52,506 nt of DNA from a virus: the UHGV virus genome UHGV-0041832. The stretch is one strand, 5' to 3'. This document shows, in pieces, positions 5,781 to 43,974 of the stretch (within the stretch, counting starts at the first letter, position 1; each line of letters starts with the position of its first letter). The notes under the pieces were generated by a model. It made no database searches and was not told the DNA's origin. It was given only the letters and a program-made list of their open reading frames with translations. A program made the position numbers and the translations under genes.

Positions 5781-5798
5781 TATGTTATTGCCTTCGGT

Positions 5799-6917
5799 TT
5801 ACAAAATGGAATATTCAGGGTAATAAACAAAGCGCCCAATTTCCCCATGATCCGGGCTGTAAATAATCACCGCTGCCAGACGCCGCGACCGCCAGCCGCC
5901 ATTAGTTGAATATGCGTCTTTGCCAGCTAATGTGCCGTGGTGCTCAACTATTCCAAGTGATGTTTCAACAACTGATTGATGGTGCAGATGTCCAGTGTGA
6001 GCGTAAACAGCCACAGACCTCCCGAAATCCTCCCGCCAGTCAGATACGCAAGCCGACAATAAATTTTCCGGCTTTTTGATAGTGTGCCCGTGGTGGTAAG
6101 CAAGGAATGTTTTGCCGTACTGTGTGTGGTGGACGATAGCAGGGGACACATCAACAGTTACGCGCGGTTCATCTTCGTAAAAAGCCGCCAGCGCCGCACG
6201 TAGCCAAATCATGCCAGACTGATCGTGATTGCCTGATAGTACCTGGATTTCAATATCCTTATGATTTAACAACATCTTTCCTACCGCCCGACGTACCGCT
6301 CGGATCGCTACATAGACAAGTTTTGCATAGCGTGAATCGCAATCCAGTACGTGATTGCTTGATGGCGTAACTGGCAACAGCCCGTCAGTGTGAAGAACAT
6401 CCCCACCGAGAAGCAAAACAGCTTTTTCAGACATCGGCGCAGCGCCCACCGCGTAGTCAAAGAATTCATTCAACACGCGTTCAGCGATCCCAGTGTCGTA
6501 GCTCTCGCCGCATTCAGCTTTATGAGCAAGCGCCCCGATATGCAGATCAAATACCGGATAAAGGGCCAGGCTTTTTTGAAAATCAATTTCAGGCACTGGC
6601 ACGGCCTCCGCGCGTGGTATTTCTTCCGTGAATGCGTCGCGGGCAGCTTCCATTAGCCTTTCCATTTCATCACGGTCACGGGCAGTTTTAATCCAGCGCA
6701 TGACCGTATTACCAGCCTTATCGACAAGAACAGATTCACCAGTAACGCCAAAACCAGGCGCGCGACGCGTTGATATTAAACCGCGTTTCGCCAGTTTTGC
6801 GCCTAGCCGCTCGACGTTGCGTTTTGACATGCCATATTTTTCAGCGATCTGCTTGTACGTTAAACCGTTGTTATATTCAGCGATCAATTGCTCATCGCTG
6901 ATTTTTCTTTGCGACAT
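5799..6917 (-). CDS. HTH domain fused to calcineurin-like metallophosphoesterase
   Basis: 372 aa; N-terminal HTH (LTYKQIAEKYGMSKRNVERL); all canonical phosphoesterase motifs visible in order: DLH, GDVLHTD, GNHD, YHHGH, GHLHH. Confidence 0.7.
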   Translation of the reverse strand: MSQRKISDEQLIAEYNNGLTYKQIAEKYGMSKRNVERLGAKLAKRGLISTRRAPGFGVTGESVLVDKAGNTVMRWIKTARDRDEMERLMEAARDAFTEEIPRAEAVPVPEIDFQKSLALYPVFDLHIGALAHKAECGESYDTGIAERVLNEFFDYAVGAAPMSEKAVLLLGGDVLHTDGLLPVTPSSNHVLDCDSRYAKLVYVAIRAVRRAVGKMLLNHKDIEIQVLSGNHDQSGMIWLRAALAAFYEDEPRVTVDVSPAIVHHTQYGKTFLAYHHGHTIKKPENLLSACVSDWREDFGRSVAVYAHTGHLHHQSVVETSLGIVEHHGTLAGKDAYSTNGGWRSRRLAAVIIYSPDHGEIGRFVYYPEYSIL

Positions 6918-6950
6918 AATGTTATTTCCTCATGTTTACATTTTGTATAT

Positions 6951-7874
6951 TTATTGACAGCAAACAATCTCTTTATATGTTTCTTCTACCATGTCGAATA
7001 CTTCCGGCCTGTAATAAAAAAATTCAGTGCTACCATCAAACTTAACAGGGAAGTTTATTTTATAGTCACTGAAAGCATCGTGCATTTTGCTTTCTATTTC
7101 CTGCATAATCTCAGTAGGCCCATTCCATGTTTTAACTACCTGTAAATCAGTCAGCCTTACACCTGCCTTACGAGCACTTTTAAATACTCTGTTCCTCCTT
7201 TCGTTCTCTTTTACGCTTACACCAATTTTCATTTGTGTAGGCACTTCAAGATCATCAACCATGATGTAAAGTTTTCCGTTGTAGTGTGATAAAAACCCGT
7301 ATTTAGCGCATTTCGGGCAACCGCGCCCGCTCTTAATGTCTCTAGGTTTAGCCGACCACTCATGATCACAAACCTTGCAGCGGCATAATACTTTTGTACT
7401 GTTATTAACTATTTCAACCAGCACTTCAATATCAGGATTAACCTTAGCAATAGCCGATATTTGTTCTTCATGCGATATTTTTTTGCCTTGCGCTCGTTTT
7501 AGCACCGCACATTTCTGGCAACCGCTCCCGATCTTAAGGCTTTTAGGTGTAGAATACCACTCATGATCACAAACCTTGCAGCGGCATAATACTTTTATTT
7601 TGTCGCCGGTAATTTCCCCAAGCACTTCAATATCAGGATTAACCTTAGCAATAGCCGATATTTGTTCTTCATGCGATAACTTCATATTCCCAGCGCATTT
7701 CTGGCAACCACGTCCATATTTAATATTGCTAGGTGTAGCCGACCATTCATGGTTACAAACTTTGCAGCGACATAATACTTTTGTACTGTTATTAACAATT
7801 TCCCCTAACACTTCAACATCAGGATTAACTTTCGCGATAGCTGCAACTTGTTCTTCATGTGTTAACTTGCGCAT
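6951..7874 (-). CDS. Three tandem CxxC..CxxC zinc-ribbon repeats fused to a T5orf172 (GIY-YIG-like) C-terminal domain
   Basis: 307 aa; three ~64-aa repeats (HEEQxxAIAKVNPDxEVLGEI...KVLCRCKVCxHEW...GxGCxKC); C-terminal GKLYIMVDD...KIGVS...FDGSTEFF resembles T5orf172. Confidence 0.6.
   Translation of the reverse strand: MRKLTHEEQVAAIAKVNPDVEVLGEIVNNSTKVLCRCKVCNHEWSATPSNIKYGRGCQKCAGNMKLSHEEQISAIAKVNPDIEVLGEITGDKIKVLCRCKVCDHEWYSTPKSLKIGSGCQKCAVLKRAQGKKISHEEQISAIAKVNPDIEVLVEIVNNSTKVLCRCKVCDHEWSAKPRDIKSGRGCPKCAKYGFLSHYNGKLYIMVDDLEVPTQMKIGVSVKENERRNRVFKSARKAGVRLTDLQVVKTWNGPTEIMQEIESKMHDAFSDYKINFPVKFDGSTEFFYYRPEVFDMVEETYKEIVCCQ
7310..7874. repeat. Three direct ~195-bp tandem repeats inside the zinc-ribbon gene
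   Basis: Near-identical DNA segments (e.g. agcacttcaatatcaggattaaccttagcaatagccgatatttgttcttcatgcgata at 7425-7482 and 7624-7681); also evident as duplicated alt-frame ORFs 7375..7566 and 7576..7890. Confidence 0.85.
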
Positions 7875-8013
7875 CGCTCCAACTCCTTAAGAACATCATG
7901 CGCGCTACAACGCAAAAACCCACCGCGACACCCGTTTGCACAGGTTGCAGTGTCTTATTGCGTCAGAGACGCCATCAGGTGGCTAATTTTCGATTTACAG
8001 AATGGTAGGTAGG

Positions 8014-8115
8014 TTATGGATTGATTAGCAGGTACAGACCGCCGAACAAGGCGACGTTAACAGCGATTGCCGCAGCGATGGCAAAAGCCAGGGCGAAAAC
8101 GTGTTTACCGTCCAT
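8014..8115 (-). CDS. Possible 33-aa hydrophobic mini-protein
   Basis: Hand-translated MDGKHVFALAFAIAAAIAVNVALFGGLYLLINP with GAGAGGA-like SD upstream; below ORF-track size cutoff. Confidence 0.25.
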   Translation of the reverse strand: MDGKHVFALAFAIAAAIAVNVALFGGLYLLINP

Positions 8116-8249
8116 TTTAAAATCCTCTCTGTAACGCTCTATAACGAGCTAATCGCAAAAAGGTAAGCAAAGTGTAGCACCACATGCGATTTAGCTCGCT
8201 GGTGAGGTTGTTTTGTGGGTAATTTTGGATTTTTGCGGATCGTGATTGG

Positions 8250-43327: not shown

Positions 43328-43379
43328 GTATTTATAAACGACCATTCCGCGCGATATATCCCCTTTCGAATATCTCGAC

Positions 43380-43634
43380 TCACTTATGAGTGCCTTTCAC
43401 GCCACATAACTTGTTATAGGCATGGTGCTCAACAATTAACCAAACCTTCAAATCTTCGCTAAACAGCCTCCAATCAAGATTGATATCCATTTTGTATCCG
43501 TAACCGTCGCGTAACTTTTTGGGGTAAACTTCTTTTCTCAGAAAGGCTTTAAGTAATTCCTTACCTTTCTTGATGATCCGGTCCTGTGCGTTTTTCTGTG
43601 CTTTCAGATTTCTGTCAATCGCTACCAGTTTCAT
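43380..43634 (-). CDS. Small basic protein, possible RelE/YoeB-like toxin (moron)
   Basis: 84 aa; segment QDRIIKKGKELLKAF loosely resembles YoeB DKRIVKKINELIKD; opposite strand between tape measure and tail M. Confidence 0.35.
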   Translation of the reverse strand: MKLVAIDRNLKAQKNAQDRIIKKGKELLKAFLRKEVYPKKLRDGYGYKMDINLDWRLFSEDLKVWLIVEHHAYNKLCGVKGTHK

Positions 43635-43651
43635 AACTCACCCCATCATCC

Positions 43652-43807
43652 TTAGTTAAGTGCCTTCAGGAAGAAGTCCCGGTATTCATCTTCTTTCGCA
43701 TTCATCATGAATTGACCGTATTTGAATGCGTCGTCGAAACCCTTAACGATTGCTATTTCCACTTGTTCGAATGCGTTATTTAGCATTACTACTACATAGC
43801 GTTTCAT
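43652..43807 (-). CDS. Possible 51-aa partner protein upstream of 43380..43634 gene
   Basis: Hand-translated MKRYVVVMLNNAFEQVEIAIVKGFDDAFKYGQFMMNAKEDEYRDFFLKALN; strong SD GAAGGAGG; 17 nt from downstream gene start. Confidence 0.35.
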   Translation of the reverse strand: MKRYVVVMLNNAFEQVEIAIVKGFDDAFKYGQFMMNAKEDEYRDFFLKALN

Positions 43808-43917
43808 TTTGGGCCTCCTTCGTTGGTACTACTTTCTTCTTGCTTTCTATATACATCTTGTTGCGTGCTATGTGAAGCCATTTTGTAAACTAGCTATAAT
43901 CATTGTGACAATGATCT

Positions 43918-43943
43918 TATTTTTCGCGTAGAAGCGCGTAAAG
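43918..43943 (+). repeat. 23-nt exact repeat TTTTTCGCGTAGAAGCGCGTAAA (second copy at 31537-31560)
   Basis: Identical string upstream of portal gene and upstream of tail M gene; contains direct repeat CGCGTA-GAAG-CGCGTA. Confidence 0.85.
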
Positions 43944-43974
43944 ATATATACAAAATGTAACTTGTGGGGGTTTT

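Follow-up and report, generated by a model that had tools for sequence, protein, structure and literature searches.

Two arrangements of immunity operators are familiar from temperate phages. In the lambda type, a small set of sites serves the repressor, as in lambda with its six 17-bp operators and in N15/phiKO2, whose CB protein has five 16-bp operators (PMC4997575). Alternatively, operators are dispersed over the genome, as are the 22 asymmetric 17-bp operators (ATTGCTCTAATAAATTT) of P1 C1 (PMC8546580) and the more than 20 asymmetric 13-mer operators/stoperators of mycobacteriophage L5 and cluster A (PMC9283540, PMC6550527). Here, we describe a repeated motif of 13-14 bases in the virus genome UHGV-0041832, which was analysed over its full 52,506 nucleotides (hereafter the window) and which is an E. 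coli prophage of the mEpimmI (mEp021-like) coliphage group. We propose, with a probability of approximately 0.78, that the motif copies are putative operators of Rep, the CI-like immunity repressor; the set would be unusual, as approximately 20 such sites are scattered genome-wide in place of the customary five or six next to the gene of the repressor.

Reality of the motif was confirmed. KTWTACAAAATGGA has six exact matches (5797, 9783, 10740, 18174, 18241 on the minus strand, and 40870) versus 0.00 expected from 100 dinucleotide shuffles of the whole window, and its core TACAAAATGGA, with at most one mismatch, has 14 versus 1.54 expected (maximum 7); once an N run and a homopolymer are set aside, the most frequent 9- to 12-mer of the window is likewise this core. 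The site family of about 20 copies fits (G)T[A/T]TAC-AAAAT-G[G/T]A[T], and was shown to be a version of a 15-17-bp pseudo-palindromic operator, ATAC-N5-GTAT, in which the left half is consensus, the centre a fixed A-tract, and the right half weaker. TGG is kept instead of TGT in 11 of ~16 copies, rendering the consensus markedly asymmetric, an oddity if a symmetric CI-type dimer binds it; the fixed AAAAT is likewise unusual as an operator spacer. Among orthologues, the right half-site toggles between GGA and GTA(T), and the TGTA copies listed initially as one-mismatch are not degenerate but match better in this half.

All copies listed in the initial annotation were present, with offsets of at most 1-2 nt: 5797-5810(+), 6937-6947(-), 9783-9796(+), 10740-10753(+), 14845-14855(-), 18174/18241, 24460-24477(+) with 24486-24503(-), 40870/40898, 43877-43887(-), and 43949-43959(+). 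Its list lacked an exact core copy within a ParE-like moron gene (43486-43496, -) and a further copy just past the N-like gene (11422-11432, +). In a window of which ~90% is coding, the assertion that all copies lie in gaps applied to nearly all strong sites, but not to 43483-43500, which with the annotation of relatives is the sole one of the 13 sites above 15 bits neither in a gap nor at a gene end, and not to the copy at 5797, which is not purely intergenic as a 372-aa gene ends inside it (last four codons plus stop, ..S I L *). Copies do occur at the borders of opposite-strand morons, as had been remarked. They also occupy equivalent positions in close relatives, being kept in all 44 close loci, and in the sister phage L077, of which only 17% of the DNA is alignable, copies are found at the same gene junctions. 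Throughout the alignments, motif blocks and TTG are invariant and spacers vary. Inverted pairs of the motif are, within IMG/VR, confined to this phage lineage, as would not be expected if a general host factor were the reader.

The rep gene (9869..10516, +) encodes a 215-aa protein with HTH_3 (E=1.5e-12) and Peptidase_S24 (E=5.8e-19) domains, of which residues 15-208 match the lambda repressor 3BDN (E=1.4e-20); judged by these matches, Rep is a true lambda CI homologue. Its mEp021 orthologue, Rep021, confers immunity experimentally (PMC11893012). We attribute the motif to Rep because of the sites found with foreign Rep homologues, their recovery of the window copies by a weight matrix, a shared promoter geometry, the positions in the sister phage, and the fact that Rep is the only DNA-binding protein common to all these backbones and hence the only shared candidate reader. 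In four other, unrelated backbones, Rep homologues (38-55% identical) coincide with ATAC-N5-GTAT where OL/OR operators belong. L048-L050 (38% identical) have three such sites between cro and rep, one of them perfect (TATACATAACGTATA) and located in the spacer of a leaderless rep promoter; L080/L081 (50%) have them at OL/OR places, and L082 and L083 (44-51%) possess tripartite OR and OL including ATACATTTTGTAT, which is the idealised window motif read on the opposite strand. The recognition helices of these homologues share [TS][KQ]G[GA][LV][SG]HW. A matrix built solely from the foreign operators and then run on the window yielded 14 sites of at least 12 bits versus 1.7 in shuffles, ~11 of them coinciding with copies listed initially, although TTTAC...GGA copies scored only 3.6-8.8 bits and the copy at 24494 below zero. 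Of the roles suggested initially, that of binding sites for a phage regulator is thus supported by these comparisons and narrowed to Rep as the most likely regulator. Among the relatives compared, none with the same backbone and an unrelated repressor was found, so co-variation is one-sided only; furthermore, the helix-turn-helix of the sister phage is identical to that of the window, hence motif retention there cannot separate Rep from another conserved factor.

The immunity region itself appears to be organized much like that of lambda. The proposed PL operator GTTTACAAAATGGAATT (9783..9799, centre 9791, +) is centred at about -16 of a putative leftward promoter in which the reverse complement of its left half constitutes the -10 (TAAACT), 16 nt from the -35 TTGATC; both the motif and GATCAAGGC, which contains this -35, are kept in 26 unique orthologues, and nutL boxA follows 78 nt downstream at 9704(-). 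PL appears to have one strong operator, not three. A weaker candidate operator, ACAC-GTTTT-GTGA (9818..9834, centre 9826, -), ~43 nt upstream of the rep ATG, would by analogy occupy an OR2/PRM-like position; its segment is invariant across orthologues, its counterpart in the sister phage reads CGCC-ATTTT-GTGA, and the window site scores only 6.0 bits by the foreign-operator model. On the other side of rep, the promoter TTGACT-17-TATATT (10754..10782, +) had been called PL-like, but it is the rightward early promoter driving the N-like gene and is therefore PR-like; it was the sole strong sigma-70 match near motif copies in a consensus scan. The putative O_R2 (GTATACAAAATGGATTG; 10740..10756, centre 10748, +, ~ -41) overlaps the first base of the PR -35 (GGAT/TGACT) and is nearly invariant in 36 unique orthologues, in which the PR spacer is variable. 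By analogy, TTAC-GGGGC-GTAT (10765..10781, centre 10773, +), overlapping the PR -10 (GTAT/ATT) 25 bp from O_R2, is the probable O_R1; its sequence CGGGGCGTATATT is invariant across orthologues, its geometry is identical to that of O1 in L083 and L082, and it was missing from the initial list because its centre is not AAAAT. At PL of L083, a Tatumella prophage, the layout is identical (O2 as GTAT/TGCAT, O1 over the -10, again 25 bp). In lambda, O1 and O2 are 24 bp apart. The window shares with lambda-type OL/OR a true CI homologue as repressor, pseudo-palindromes of 15-17 bp, and O1 over the -10 with O2 over the -35. Unlike in lambda, only 4 of ~20 copies adjoin rep and the remainder extend across 46 kb, late region included; the consensus is strongly asymmetric with its fixed centre, and PL apparently carries a single strong operator.

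Copies outside the immunity region occur singly or in pairs. Where the 372-aa gene adjoins the DnaB helicase gene, a single operator-like copy (5797..5813, centre 5805, +) is found, at approximately -4070 from rep in nearly all 44 relatives; at this junction, the sister phage possesses two. TTAC-ATTTT-GTAT (6934..6950, centre 6942, -; 17.1 bits by the foreign-operator model) occupies the gap between the Zn-ribbon/CapR gene and the 372-aa gene. Directly 3' of the N-like gene, TAATACAAAATGTAAAC (11419..11435, centre 11427, +; 16.9 bits) is a candidate auxiliary, looping or roadblock site since it lacks a -35; the sister phage has a perfect ATAC-AAAAC-GTAT at this position. Two tandem copies (14818..14858, centres 14826 and 14850, -) follow, the second carrying a putative rightward promoter (-35 TTGTGA, 16-nt spacer, -10 TAAACA). 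Near nutR2, the upstream copy (18174..18190, centre 18182, +) likewise has no -35 and is therefore read as a putative auxiliary operator; the downstream copy GTATCCATTTTGTATAC (18238..18254, centre 18246, -; 17.0 bits), with TTG and block invariant and the spacer variable, carries a putative rightward promoter (-35 TTGTTC, 16 nt, -10 TATACT at 18250-18255), and nutR2 boxA begins 16 nt past this -10. Two tight inverted pairs, both 25 bp centre to centre like O_R1 and O_R2 (partly hand counts), are found at 24461..24502 (centres 24469 and 24494) and 40870..40911 (centres 40878 and 40903). The former is a conserved island between non-homologous flanks, and its 24494 copy carries TTGTTT-17-TGtTATAAA, rightward. 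The latter separates a leftward TagO-like lipoprotein moron from the tape-measure gene, has putative back-to-back -10 elements (leftward TTTACT-17-TATAAG, rightward TATAAA), and is kept in mEp021 and mEp010 despite a different adjacent moron. Further downstream, the copy inside the ParE-like moron gene (43483..43499, centre 43491, -; 15.6 bits) is also found in the closest prophage, and a wider pair (43874..43962, centres 43882 and 43954, 72 bp apart) separates the leftward ParE-like cassette from the tail gene at 43975. ATATACATATTGTAAAA (44371..44387, centre 44379, +; 16.9 bits) is situated at ~ -16 of a predicted leftward promoter, TTGATC-17-TATATT, which in relatives heads a KilAC/antirepressor cassette lost from the window; its sequence also stands upstream of the cassette in L001 and L002. 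The best palindromic copy, AAATACATTATGTATAA (51867..51883, centre 51875; 21.8 bits), upstream of a leftward lipoprotein moron, was absent from the initial list.

Such dispersal is reminiscent of P1 C1, which is similarly an immunity repressor (putatively so here) of an E. coli temperate phage with many scattered, asymmetric operators and promoters; some P1 C1 operators form inverted pairs, as in the window. P1 C1, however, binds as a monomer and is unrelated to CI/LexA-type proteins, the operator sequences are unrelated, and P1 possesses the accessory circuitry Coi, Lxc and Ant. With L5 and cluster A, the window shares a motif of 13-14 bp, repeated ~20 times at promoters and in short gaps genome-wide and assigned to the immunity repressor. 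In L5-type phages, a monomer containing two DNA-binding domains binds the sites, whose orientation tracks transcription, whereas the window has a CI/S24-type repressor, a degenerate palindrome, and no orientation bias (9 of 15 copies, P = 0.61).

Several copies are accompanied by two kinds of neighbouring elements. The window has exactly three boxA matches (9704(-), 11038(+), and 18271(+)), and the third, GCTCTTTAA, forms with a boxB-like hairpin the nutR2 site (18271..18310, +), which is context and not part of the motif; these nut-site positions agree with PMC11893012. The CAGATCACA(A)AATG element, present as ACAGATCACA at 40921, 44425, and 51898, had been taken for a variant of the motif, but is instead a separate CRP-like palindrome or half-site: at 44419 and 51892, CAGATCACA is the right half of TGTGA-N6-TCACA, a palindrome with six sites versus 1.49 expected. 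CRP class I promoters of E. coli have TGTGA-N6-TCACA centred near -61.5. Comparably, three motif-bearing putative promoters have high-quality palindromes at about -59.5 to -60.5 (hand counts), 1-2 bp off this distance relative to inferred transcription starts: CGTGATTGCGATCACA (14799..14814), centred 47 nt before the 14850 promoter's -10 (~ -59.5), CGTGATATGGATCACA (18195..18210) at ~ -59.5 of the nutR2-proximal promoter, and the perfect TGTGATCTGTATCACA (24443..24458) at ~ -60.5 of the 24499 promoter. As in class I sites, half-sites are conserved and centres variable (for CGTGATATGGATCACA, in 36 orthologues); unlike them, the CRP-like sites at 44419 and 51892 lie at distances unsuited to activation.

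The linkage to promoters could also mean that the motif is a conserved core shared by duplicated sigma-70 promoters (the spacer together with the -10 and, on the opposite strand, an UP-like A-tract) and is read by RNA polymerase only, which we consider unlikely. Its reverse complement does supply a -10 (TAWACT), 4 of 12 copies have TTG upstream at a distance of exactly 16 nt (P = 8e-4), each of these faces genes, and two have nutL or nutR2 just downstream; in addition, forward copies are located at ~ -49..-36 of three promoters, the place of an UP element, and ACAAAATGG resembles the proximal UP subsite AAAAAARNR. Promoter spacers, however, are normally unconserved, yet TCCATTTTG is conserved, and at least six well-conserved copies (5805, 10748, 11427, 18182, 24469, and 43491) have no -35 and face against or away from genes. 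Moreover, the same 13-mer builds the canonical triple OL/OR in lambdoid prophages encoding Rep homologues, and a generic sigma-70 consensus scan picked up no motif-linked promoter other than PR; the remaining promoters are predictions from sequence. Because an operator half-site can double as a -10, promoter cores and recognition by Rep are compatible for about half of the copies, but the former cannot suffice alone, and the promoter-associated role suggested initially holds for a subset only. Quite unlikely, too, is a reader other than Rep, whether the gp14-like protein at the Cro position, the 372-aa HTH/metallophosphoesterase, or host Fis, IHF or TyrR. An asymmetric site with an A-tract centre would suit a monomeric or bending protein, Cro proteins normally use the operators of CI, and TGTAAA/TTTACA resembles a TyrR half-box. 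Against this, the gp14-like protein of the window and the HTH_3 Cro-like protein of L077 are dissimilar although both phages share the motif; 18 loci devoid of the motif encode proteins homologous to the 372-aa one (58-73% identical); Citrobacter, Enterobacter and Tatumella prophages having only Rep in common with the window keep the sites beside rep; and the lineage-bound inverted pairs speak against host factors. A Cro-like protein could additionally bind a subset of the Rep sites.

An RNA-level role, in which inverted pairs form hairpins that terminate, stabilise or process transcripts at operon borders, is very unlikely as a general explanation, even though the pairs fold better than shuffles (-13.5 kcal/mol, z = -3.2; -32.9, z = -5.8; -21.7, z = -2.5; and for the 24461 pair -20.2, z = -5.3) and the mEp010 orthologue of the 24461/24489 pair is annotated as ARNold terminator T8. 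At least eight conserved single copies (5805, 6942, 9791, 10748, 11427, 14850, 44379, and 51875) are unable to pair, the stems are AT-rich with a terminator-like U-rich tail at the 24461 pair only, Rfam families had 0 matches across the window, and a hairpin is inherent to any inverted operator pair; the 24461 pair may nevertheless have a secondary terminator role. Least probable is the initial suggestion that the motif is a module-boundary sequence providing short homology for the recombination behind phage mosaicism. Several copies do coincide exactly with breaks in homology: mEp021 and mEp010 have an HNH gene inserted beside the 5797 copy, relatives share no homology in the flanks of the 24461 and 40870 pairs, and breakpoint clusters lie within 60 nt of seven operator loci. 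Yet of 132 clusters of homology breaks versus 65 relatives, only seven (5.3%) have a copy no more than 60 nt away, compared with the 3.7% of the window that lies so close by chance, and the busiest junctions (e.g. 2735, 3320, 7901, 16912) have none. About half of the operator loci adjoin a junction between cassettes, as control regions at the edges of cassettes should, and regulatory DNA would coincide with some junctions anyway; the idea also leaves the match to OL/OR operators elsewhere unexplained, and is largely refuted.

Returning to Rep as the putative reader, we hypothesize that Rep dimers would bind the operators via the helix-turn-helix TKGGLSHWLNG and the N-terminal arm MKTKW. The two early promoters would follow a lambda-like layout with one operator centred near -16, whose GTAT/GTAWAC half-site itself serves as the -10 hexamer, such that bound Rep would occlude RNA polymerase; at PR, the second operator 25 bp upstream over the -35 would have the spacing for cooperative binding of two dimers, and the weak site ahead of the rep start codon could allow autoregulation. 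The operator with embedded -10 would recur at the CRP-coupled promoter directly upstream of the third nut site (nutR2), at the promoters near 14850 and 24500, and on leftward cassettes of the late region encoding a lipoprotein, a ParE-like toxin, an antirepressor (in relatives), and an exclusion lipoprotein. Copies without a -35 (5805, 11427, 18182, and 24469) may represent auxiliary cooperative or looped sites or roadblocks. Genes of the exclusion-lipoprotein type are expected to be on in lysogens, and operators there would be counter-intuitive if Rep only represses. If our proposal is true, a single repressor would, in the lysogen, silence or tune transcription units at many dispersed places.

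The motif copies dispersed along the window are, with a probability that we put at roughly 0.78, operators of the CI-like repressor Rep, spread genome-wide and in many cases doubling as -10 elements; our confidence in the roles of individual sites is lower than in this attribution. As a prophage, the 52.5-kb sequence belongs to the mEpimmI (mEp021-like) group of temperate E. coli siphophages: mEp010, mEp013, mEp021, mEp044, mEp515, and mEp554 are 87-89% identical to the window, and prophages in 35 complete E. coli genomes reach up to 93% identity. Its gene layout, pieced together from the listed ORFs and from annotated relatives, comprises the integrase (14-1240), a leftward early operon (1434-9551) encoding NinB, a DnaB helicase, a 372-aa HTH/metallophosphoesterase-like protein, a Zn-ribbon/CapR protein, a Lin1244-type replication protein and a small gp14-like protein, the repressor gene rep (9869-10516, + strand), a strong rightward promoter PR (TTGACT-17-TATATT, 10754-10782, + strand), and the N-like gp17 (11131-11421). 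Downstream of gp17 follow ERF, SSB, methylases, NinG, and RusA, then Q (19711-20439), about 30 small genes, and finally the lysis and structural genes, with four leftward accessory cassettes within the tail region. The Zn-ribbon/CapR gene contains, at 7375-7890, a unit of about 190-200 nt tandemly repeated three times, in which 12-mers recur at 7384/7585/7771 and 7431/7632/7818, and the three repeats match three DUF4379 treble-clef zinc-finger units in Pfam. The mEpimmI group has already been described: Rep021, the mEp021 orthologue of Rep, confers immunity when expressed from a plasmid, Gp17 acts on nutL, nutR1, and nutR2, and these phages were reported to be as frequent as lambdoid phages in human-gut E. 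coli, while operator recognition was treated hypothetically only and the dispersed motif is absent from the text (PMC11893012). In a literature search for Rep021 we found its function shown but its operators defined nowhere, and no relevant paper beyond that one.

The initial annotation had noticed a dispersed 13-nt motif, and its pattern indeed has six exact matches against none expected from shuffled controls. An 11-nt core with at most one mismatch yielded 14 matches against 1.5 expected in the window, of which the motif core is the most over-represented k-mer. The claimed placement in gaps between genes was likewise borne out, with all 13 sites above a cut-off of 15 bits (window PWM made from 11 copies) being intergenic or at gene ends, bar one in the ParE-like gene. 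Genome-wide, about 20 sites, nearly all intergenic, occupy promoters and short intergenic gaps, and about 16 of these lie away from rep, between 5797 and 51883 and up to 41 kb distant. In the motif, (G)T[A/T]TAC-AAAAT-G[G/T]A[T], the left half follows the consensus, the A-tract centre is fixed, and the right half is weaker; it is poor (GGA or GGC) in most window copies and the dyad symmetry is weak, while orthologues switch between GGA and GTA(T), as in TACAAAATGTATAC of the closest prophage and TATACAAAATGTATT of mEp021. The copies carrying TGTA, which had been listed as having one mismatch, are present but not degenerate, as their right half matches better. Copy orientation showed no bias with respect to transcription (9 of 15 co-oriented, P = 0.61). 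At the 5797 copy the motif also touches coding sequence: the 372-aa protein of the window and an HNH protein both terminate in YPE(Y/F)SIL*, and these codons lie in the motif. The HNH homing-endonuclease gene stands beside the 5797 copy in mEp021 (L001, 6080-6583) and mEp010 (L003, 5304-5894) and is absent from the window at 5797-5830.

The attribution to Rep draws on operators found beside homologous repressor genes elsewhere. Rep, whose gene adjoins the sites at 9869-10516, possesses HTH_3 and Peptidase_S24 domains (Pfam) and aligns to the lambda repressor (3BDN, E = 1.4e-20), with homology extending over the C-terminal domain, and the window sites match the ATAC-N5-GTAT operators of four other Rep-type phages. 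In the phage represented by L048-L050 (Rep 37-38% identical), the region between cro and rep has three AGTATACA(T/G)A repeats, which resolve to TATAC-N5-GTAnA; one of the three is a perfect palindrome, TATACATAACGTATA, and lies in the spacer of a promoter whose TATAAT is 7 nt away from the rep ATG. The Citrobacter prophages L080/L081 (Rep 50% identical, on a DEAD-helicase/primase backbone) carry AATACATAACGTACT and AATACAAAATGGAAC upstream of rep, and TCCGTTTTGTAT|TGACG and AATACGTTATGTATT downstream of it, within a TTGACG-17-TATTGT promoter. Both an Enterobacter prophage (L082, Rep 51% identical) and a Tatumella prophage with a classical cro-cII-O-P / N layout (L083, Rep 43% identical) display tripartite OR and OL regions; the six Tatumella sites are ATACATTTCGTAT, ATACATTTTGTGT, ATACGGATTGTAT, AGACGTATTGTAT, ATACATTTTGTAT, and ATACGTTTTGTAT, and ATACATTTTGTAT is the reverse complement of the idealised window motif, ATACAAAATGTAT. 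In the Citrobacter, Enterobacter, and Tatumella prophages Rep is the sole element in common with the window. The recognition-helix region is conserved (GITKGGLSHWLNG in the window, GITQGGLGHWLNG in homologue P0013, GITKGAVSHWLNA in P0009, P0022, and P0027, and SVSKGAVGHWMTG in L048), and the sister phage (L077-L079) has an identical recognition helix and shares the N-terminal arm MKTKW.

A 17-bp PWM trained on 18 of these foreign operators, with zero window sequence, detected 14 sites in the window that reach at least 12 bits, compared with 1.7 in shuffles. About 11 of the 14 coincide with copies of the initial annotation, and the best window site of this PWM is a new perfect palindrome at 51867-51883. 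The TTTAC...GGA copies scored just 3.6-8.8 bits with this foreign model, and the copy centred at 24494 fell below 0. A symmetric dimer does not account for the conserved TGG asymmetry or for the fixed AAAAT centre. Within the portal gene (31745-31761) an operator-like sequence, TTATACAAACTGTATCG, reaches 16.6 bits with the foreign model and has a similar counterpart in the equivalent gene of mEp021 and of the closest prophage; it could be due to chance or be a functional intragenic site.

The sites overlap the -10 and -35 elements of the predicted early promoters, at a spacing that fits cooperative binding. With the operator centre taken as the third base of N5, O_R2 (10740-10756, centre 10748) ends GGAT|TGACT and so overlaps the PR -35, while the -10 (GTAT|ATT) is overlapped by O_R1 (TTAC-GGGGC-GTAT, 10767-10779, centre 10773); 25 bp separate the two operators, which lie at about -41 and -16. 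The PL of the Tatumella prophage has the same O2/O1 arrangement (GTAT|TGCAT, 25 bp). At the predicted PL of the window, the copy centred at 9791 places a minus-strand TTGATC 16 nt upstream of TAAACT, so that the operator lies at about -16, and the nutL boxA follows 78 nt downstream. The copy centred at 9826 is weak and precedes the rep ATG by 43 nt, which corresponds to where OR2-bound lambda CI sits when it activates PRM; we infer that the rep mRNA is leaderless. Both tight pairs of copies (24469/24494 and 40878/40903) are likewise 25 bp apart from centre to centre, the other pairs being 35, 64, and 72 bp apart. The palindromes TTGACTCG...CGAGTCAA around PR were also considered as operators and rejected, as they are not conserved in mEp021.

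Among close relatives, defined as 44 IMG/VR contigs with Rep at least 90% identical, the copies keep fixed offsets from rep (about -4070, -87, +756, +4870, and +8400/+8465), those at -87 and +756 being present in 44 of 44, and a comparison of 26-36 unique orthologous sequences per site shows almost no change in the motif blocks, in contrast to the variable promoter spacers next to them. The sister phage provides a stronger test of selection, because only 17% of its 20.6 kb can be aligned to the window (65-78% identity; Rep 55% identical) and yet the junction positions are kept: its top 9-mer is ACAAAATGG, and its copies occupy the same junctions, namely helicase/370-aa gene, PL, PR, and directly after the N-like gene, with a copy pair after the methylase-like gene as in the window. 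The motif copies are thus under selection, beyond mere inheritance. In the window the PR operator is found at +870 from rep, as opposed to +756 in all 44 close relatives, and the homology of 36-46 relatives stops exactly at 10545 and 10652, on either side of a run of 106 N (10546-10651) flanked by the direct repeat CTTTTCTT; the offset shift and the two breaks therefore indicate a masked insertion of about 114 nt unique to the window, located after the rep terminator and before PR. Another run of N (51398-51445, within 51370-51473), with about 28 T to its left and about 28 A to its right, is placed between the tail J gene terminator and the terminator of the leftward lipoprotein gene, and could be an assembly or masking artefact or a concealed insert.

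How can operators far from rep act? The reverse complement of the motif reads TCCATTTTG|TAWAC(T), and therefore the operator half-site itself is a -10-like hexamer. In 4 of 12 copies TTG occurs exactly 16 nt upstream of this embedded -10 (binomial P = 8e-4); these four (PL, 14850, 18246, and 24494) are all directed at downstream genes, and the TTG is kept in orthologues, whereas a fifth copy, leftward at 40873, has TTTACT at 17 nt. Only three boxA matches exist in the window (9704 on the minus strand, 11038 and 18271 on the plus strand), and the boxA of nutR2 starts 16 nt after the predicted 18246 promoter. The nutL and nutR2 regions (9782-9660 on the minus strand and 18250-18310) have ATGCTCTTTAAAAATCCGG in common, each just downstream of an operator-embedded -10. 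This suggests that nutR2 serves its own Rep-controlled promoter instead of PR read-through, and such a dedicated promoter would account for the third nut site of the group. The copies lacking a -35 (5805, 11427, 18182, 24469, and 10748 read leftward) are best seen as auxiliary operators, engaged by cooperative or looped binding, or as roadblocks. Generic sigma-70 and terminator scans recovered only PR and a leftward promoter at 44398-44370, and gave no information on the other sites. Reading the forward motif as a promoter, with TTTACA as -35, was rejected by hand, no copy having a -10 17 nt downstream, and mini-ORFs starting at an ATG within the motif were discarded for inconsistent lengths and frames.

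In the late region, copies stand upstream of every leftward accessory cassette: a pair at 40870/40898 precedes a TagO-like lipoprotein gene (in mEp021 the gene is different and the pair conserved), another at 43877/43949 precedes the ParE-like cassette, and the palindrome at 51867-51883 precedes the lipoprotein cassette. An operator at 44371-44387 lies at about -16 of a predicted leftward TTGATC-17-TATATT promoter; in mEp021 and the closest prophage this sequence stands at the head of a KilAC/antirepressor cassette, which is lost from the window; an antirepressor operon under repressor control makes biological sense. Compared with the closest prophage (L002, 43381-45179) and mEp021 (L001, 42500-44034), the window at 44330-44450 has lost this leftward cassette together with a small tail-region gene and retains the promoter and operator region, the deletion junction abutting the operator-like GTTATTTTGTTAAC. 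Elsewhere in the window, a candidate late promoter PR' (TTGTAG-17-TAAAAT) is found at 26676-26756 with a strong terminator, CCCGGCCCCGCGCCGGGTTTTTG, behind it, just before the holin gene; the unit resembles the lambda-style 6S-like unit for Q antitermination, although it lies about 6 kb downstream of Q and does not adjoin it.

A second type of palindrome accompanies the motif. TGTGA-N6-TCACA with at most one mismatch occurs six times in the window against 1.5 expected (14799-14814, 18195-18210, 24443-24458, 44419-44434, 51892-51907, and 9828-9843), always intergenic and within about 60 nt of a motif copy. We read these palindromes as CRP-like and rejected them as Rep operators, being absent from PR and of the wrong architecture. 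In three of them (14799, 18195, and 24443) the half-sites are conserved and the centres variable, and 47-48 nt separate the centre from the first base of the embedded -10 downstream. Their position of about -59.5 to -60.5 is close to that of class I CRP sites; the arrangement suggests that delayed-early phage promoters are coupled to cAMP-CRP. What had been taken for a CAGATCACA variant of the motif turned out to be the right half of such a palindrome at 44419 and 51892, and only a half-site at 40921. These three elements lie within the first ~15 nt of predicted rightward transcripts.

Several other explanations of the motif have to be weighed against operators of Rep. A pure promoter family, in which no repressor takes part, cannot explain all copies, since it leaves unaccounted for both the conserved copies without a -35 and the match to OL/OR operators elsewhere. 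RNA hairpins would form at pairs only, as single copies cannot fold; a scan for intrinsic terminators (GC-rich hairpin plus U tract) returned no copy, only the 24461 pair is terminator-like, and may terminate transcription too. No Rfam family matches the window. The data do not bear out recombination at module boundaries, a role proposed earlier for the motif: of 132 breakpoint clusters, 7 are no further than 60 nt from a copy, the background being 3.7%.

A reader protein other than Rep is unlikely. Homologues of the 372-aa HTH protein (58-73% identical) occur at 18 loci, each without a Rep gene and without the motif, which excludes this protein as reader, and the gp14-like protein in the window's Cro position has no Pfam match and does not resemble its HTH_3 Cro-like counterpart in the sister phage, a phage that has the motif too. 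A host factor is argued against by the inverted-pair form, which in IMG/VR is confined to mEpimmI contigs, matches elsewhere being chance palindromes of AT-rich contigs; consensus sequences of IHF, Fis, DnaA, LexA, and ArgR, compared by eye, gave no convincing match. The co-variation evidence in favour of Rep is one-sided, because no phage of the same backbone with an unrelated repressor was found, including by a search anchored on the 372-aa protein, whose distant matches (L120-L141) have only that gene in common; a contig profile search with the Rep alignment, using N-terminal patterns only, returned no relatives. Some of these distant, unrelated phages have dispersed motifs of their own: L123 (3764-16506; also L122, L129, and L138) carries 7-9 copies of TTTTAACAAAAAGTGCTAT in 17 kb, on the minus strand at the two or three leftmost and on the plus strand at the six rightmost positions, and a second dispersed motif, ATAGCACGAATTGC, which may represent another dispersed promoter/operator system.

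Operators of the CI family as a rule cluster beside the repressor gene, as with the six of lambda and the five of N15/phiKO2 (PMC4997575). By sequence and geometry the window sites belong to this family, but with about 16 copies elsewhere they break its rule. P1 C1 uses 22 dispersed asymmetric operators with the consensus ATTGCTCTAATAAATTT (PMC8546580); Rep, however, matches lambda CI and not C1, and the window motif is unrelated to that consensus. L5-type repressors bind as monomers to more than 20 asymmetric 13-mers whose orientation follows transcription (PMC9283540). The likeness lies in about 20 sites in promoters and short intergenic gaps genome-wide, whereas the L5 monomer has two DNA-binding domains, Rep is of the CI/S24 type without the stoperator domain, and the orientation of the window copies is unbiased. 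The system works like the P1 and L5 networks and is a member of neither, its site being a degenerate palindrome. More tentatively, and in our view with the odds against it as a whole, a lambda-CI-type repressor might run such a P1-/L5-style genome-wide network with its half-site serving as the -10 of some 8-10 otherwise unrelated promoters. These would be PL, a third early promoter reserved for nutR2, delayed-early promoters coupled to CRP, and, within the late operon, the promoters of the cassettes for antirepressor, toxin, and exclusion lipoprotein. One 15-bp dual-code element would then wire together immunity, catabolite state, and accessory-gene expression, the TGG asymmetry and AAAAT centre would stem from a second protein that reads the site, either RNA polymerase or a partner, and looping between the auxiliary copies would give the prophage a repressed architecture.

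Our analysis thus predicts the operators of the mEpimmI repressor, the PL/PR layout, and a candidate third early promoter, as well as direct repressor control of the antirepressor cassette and other accessory genes. If confirmed, a CI-family repressor would govern about 20 dispersed sites, a form of control that P1 and mycobacteriophage L5 exert through unrelated repressors and that lies outside the lambda paradigm. The mEpimmI phages would then offer a tractable E. coli system for the evolution of dispersed operator networks, and one in which to study what ties the accessory genes of a prophage to immunity and, possibly, to cAMP-CRP.
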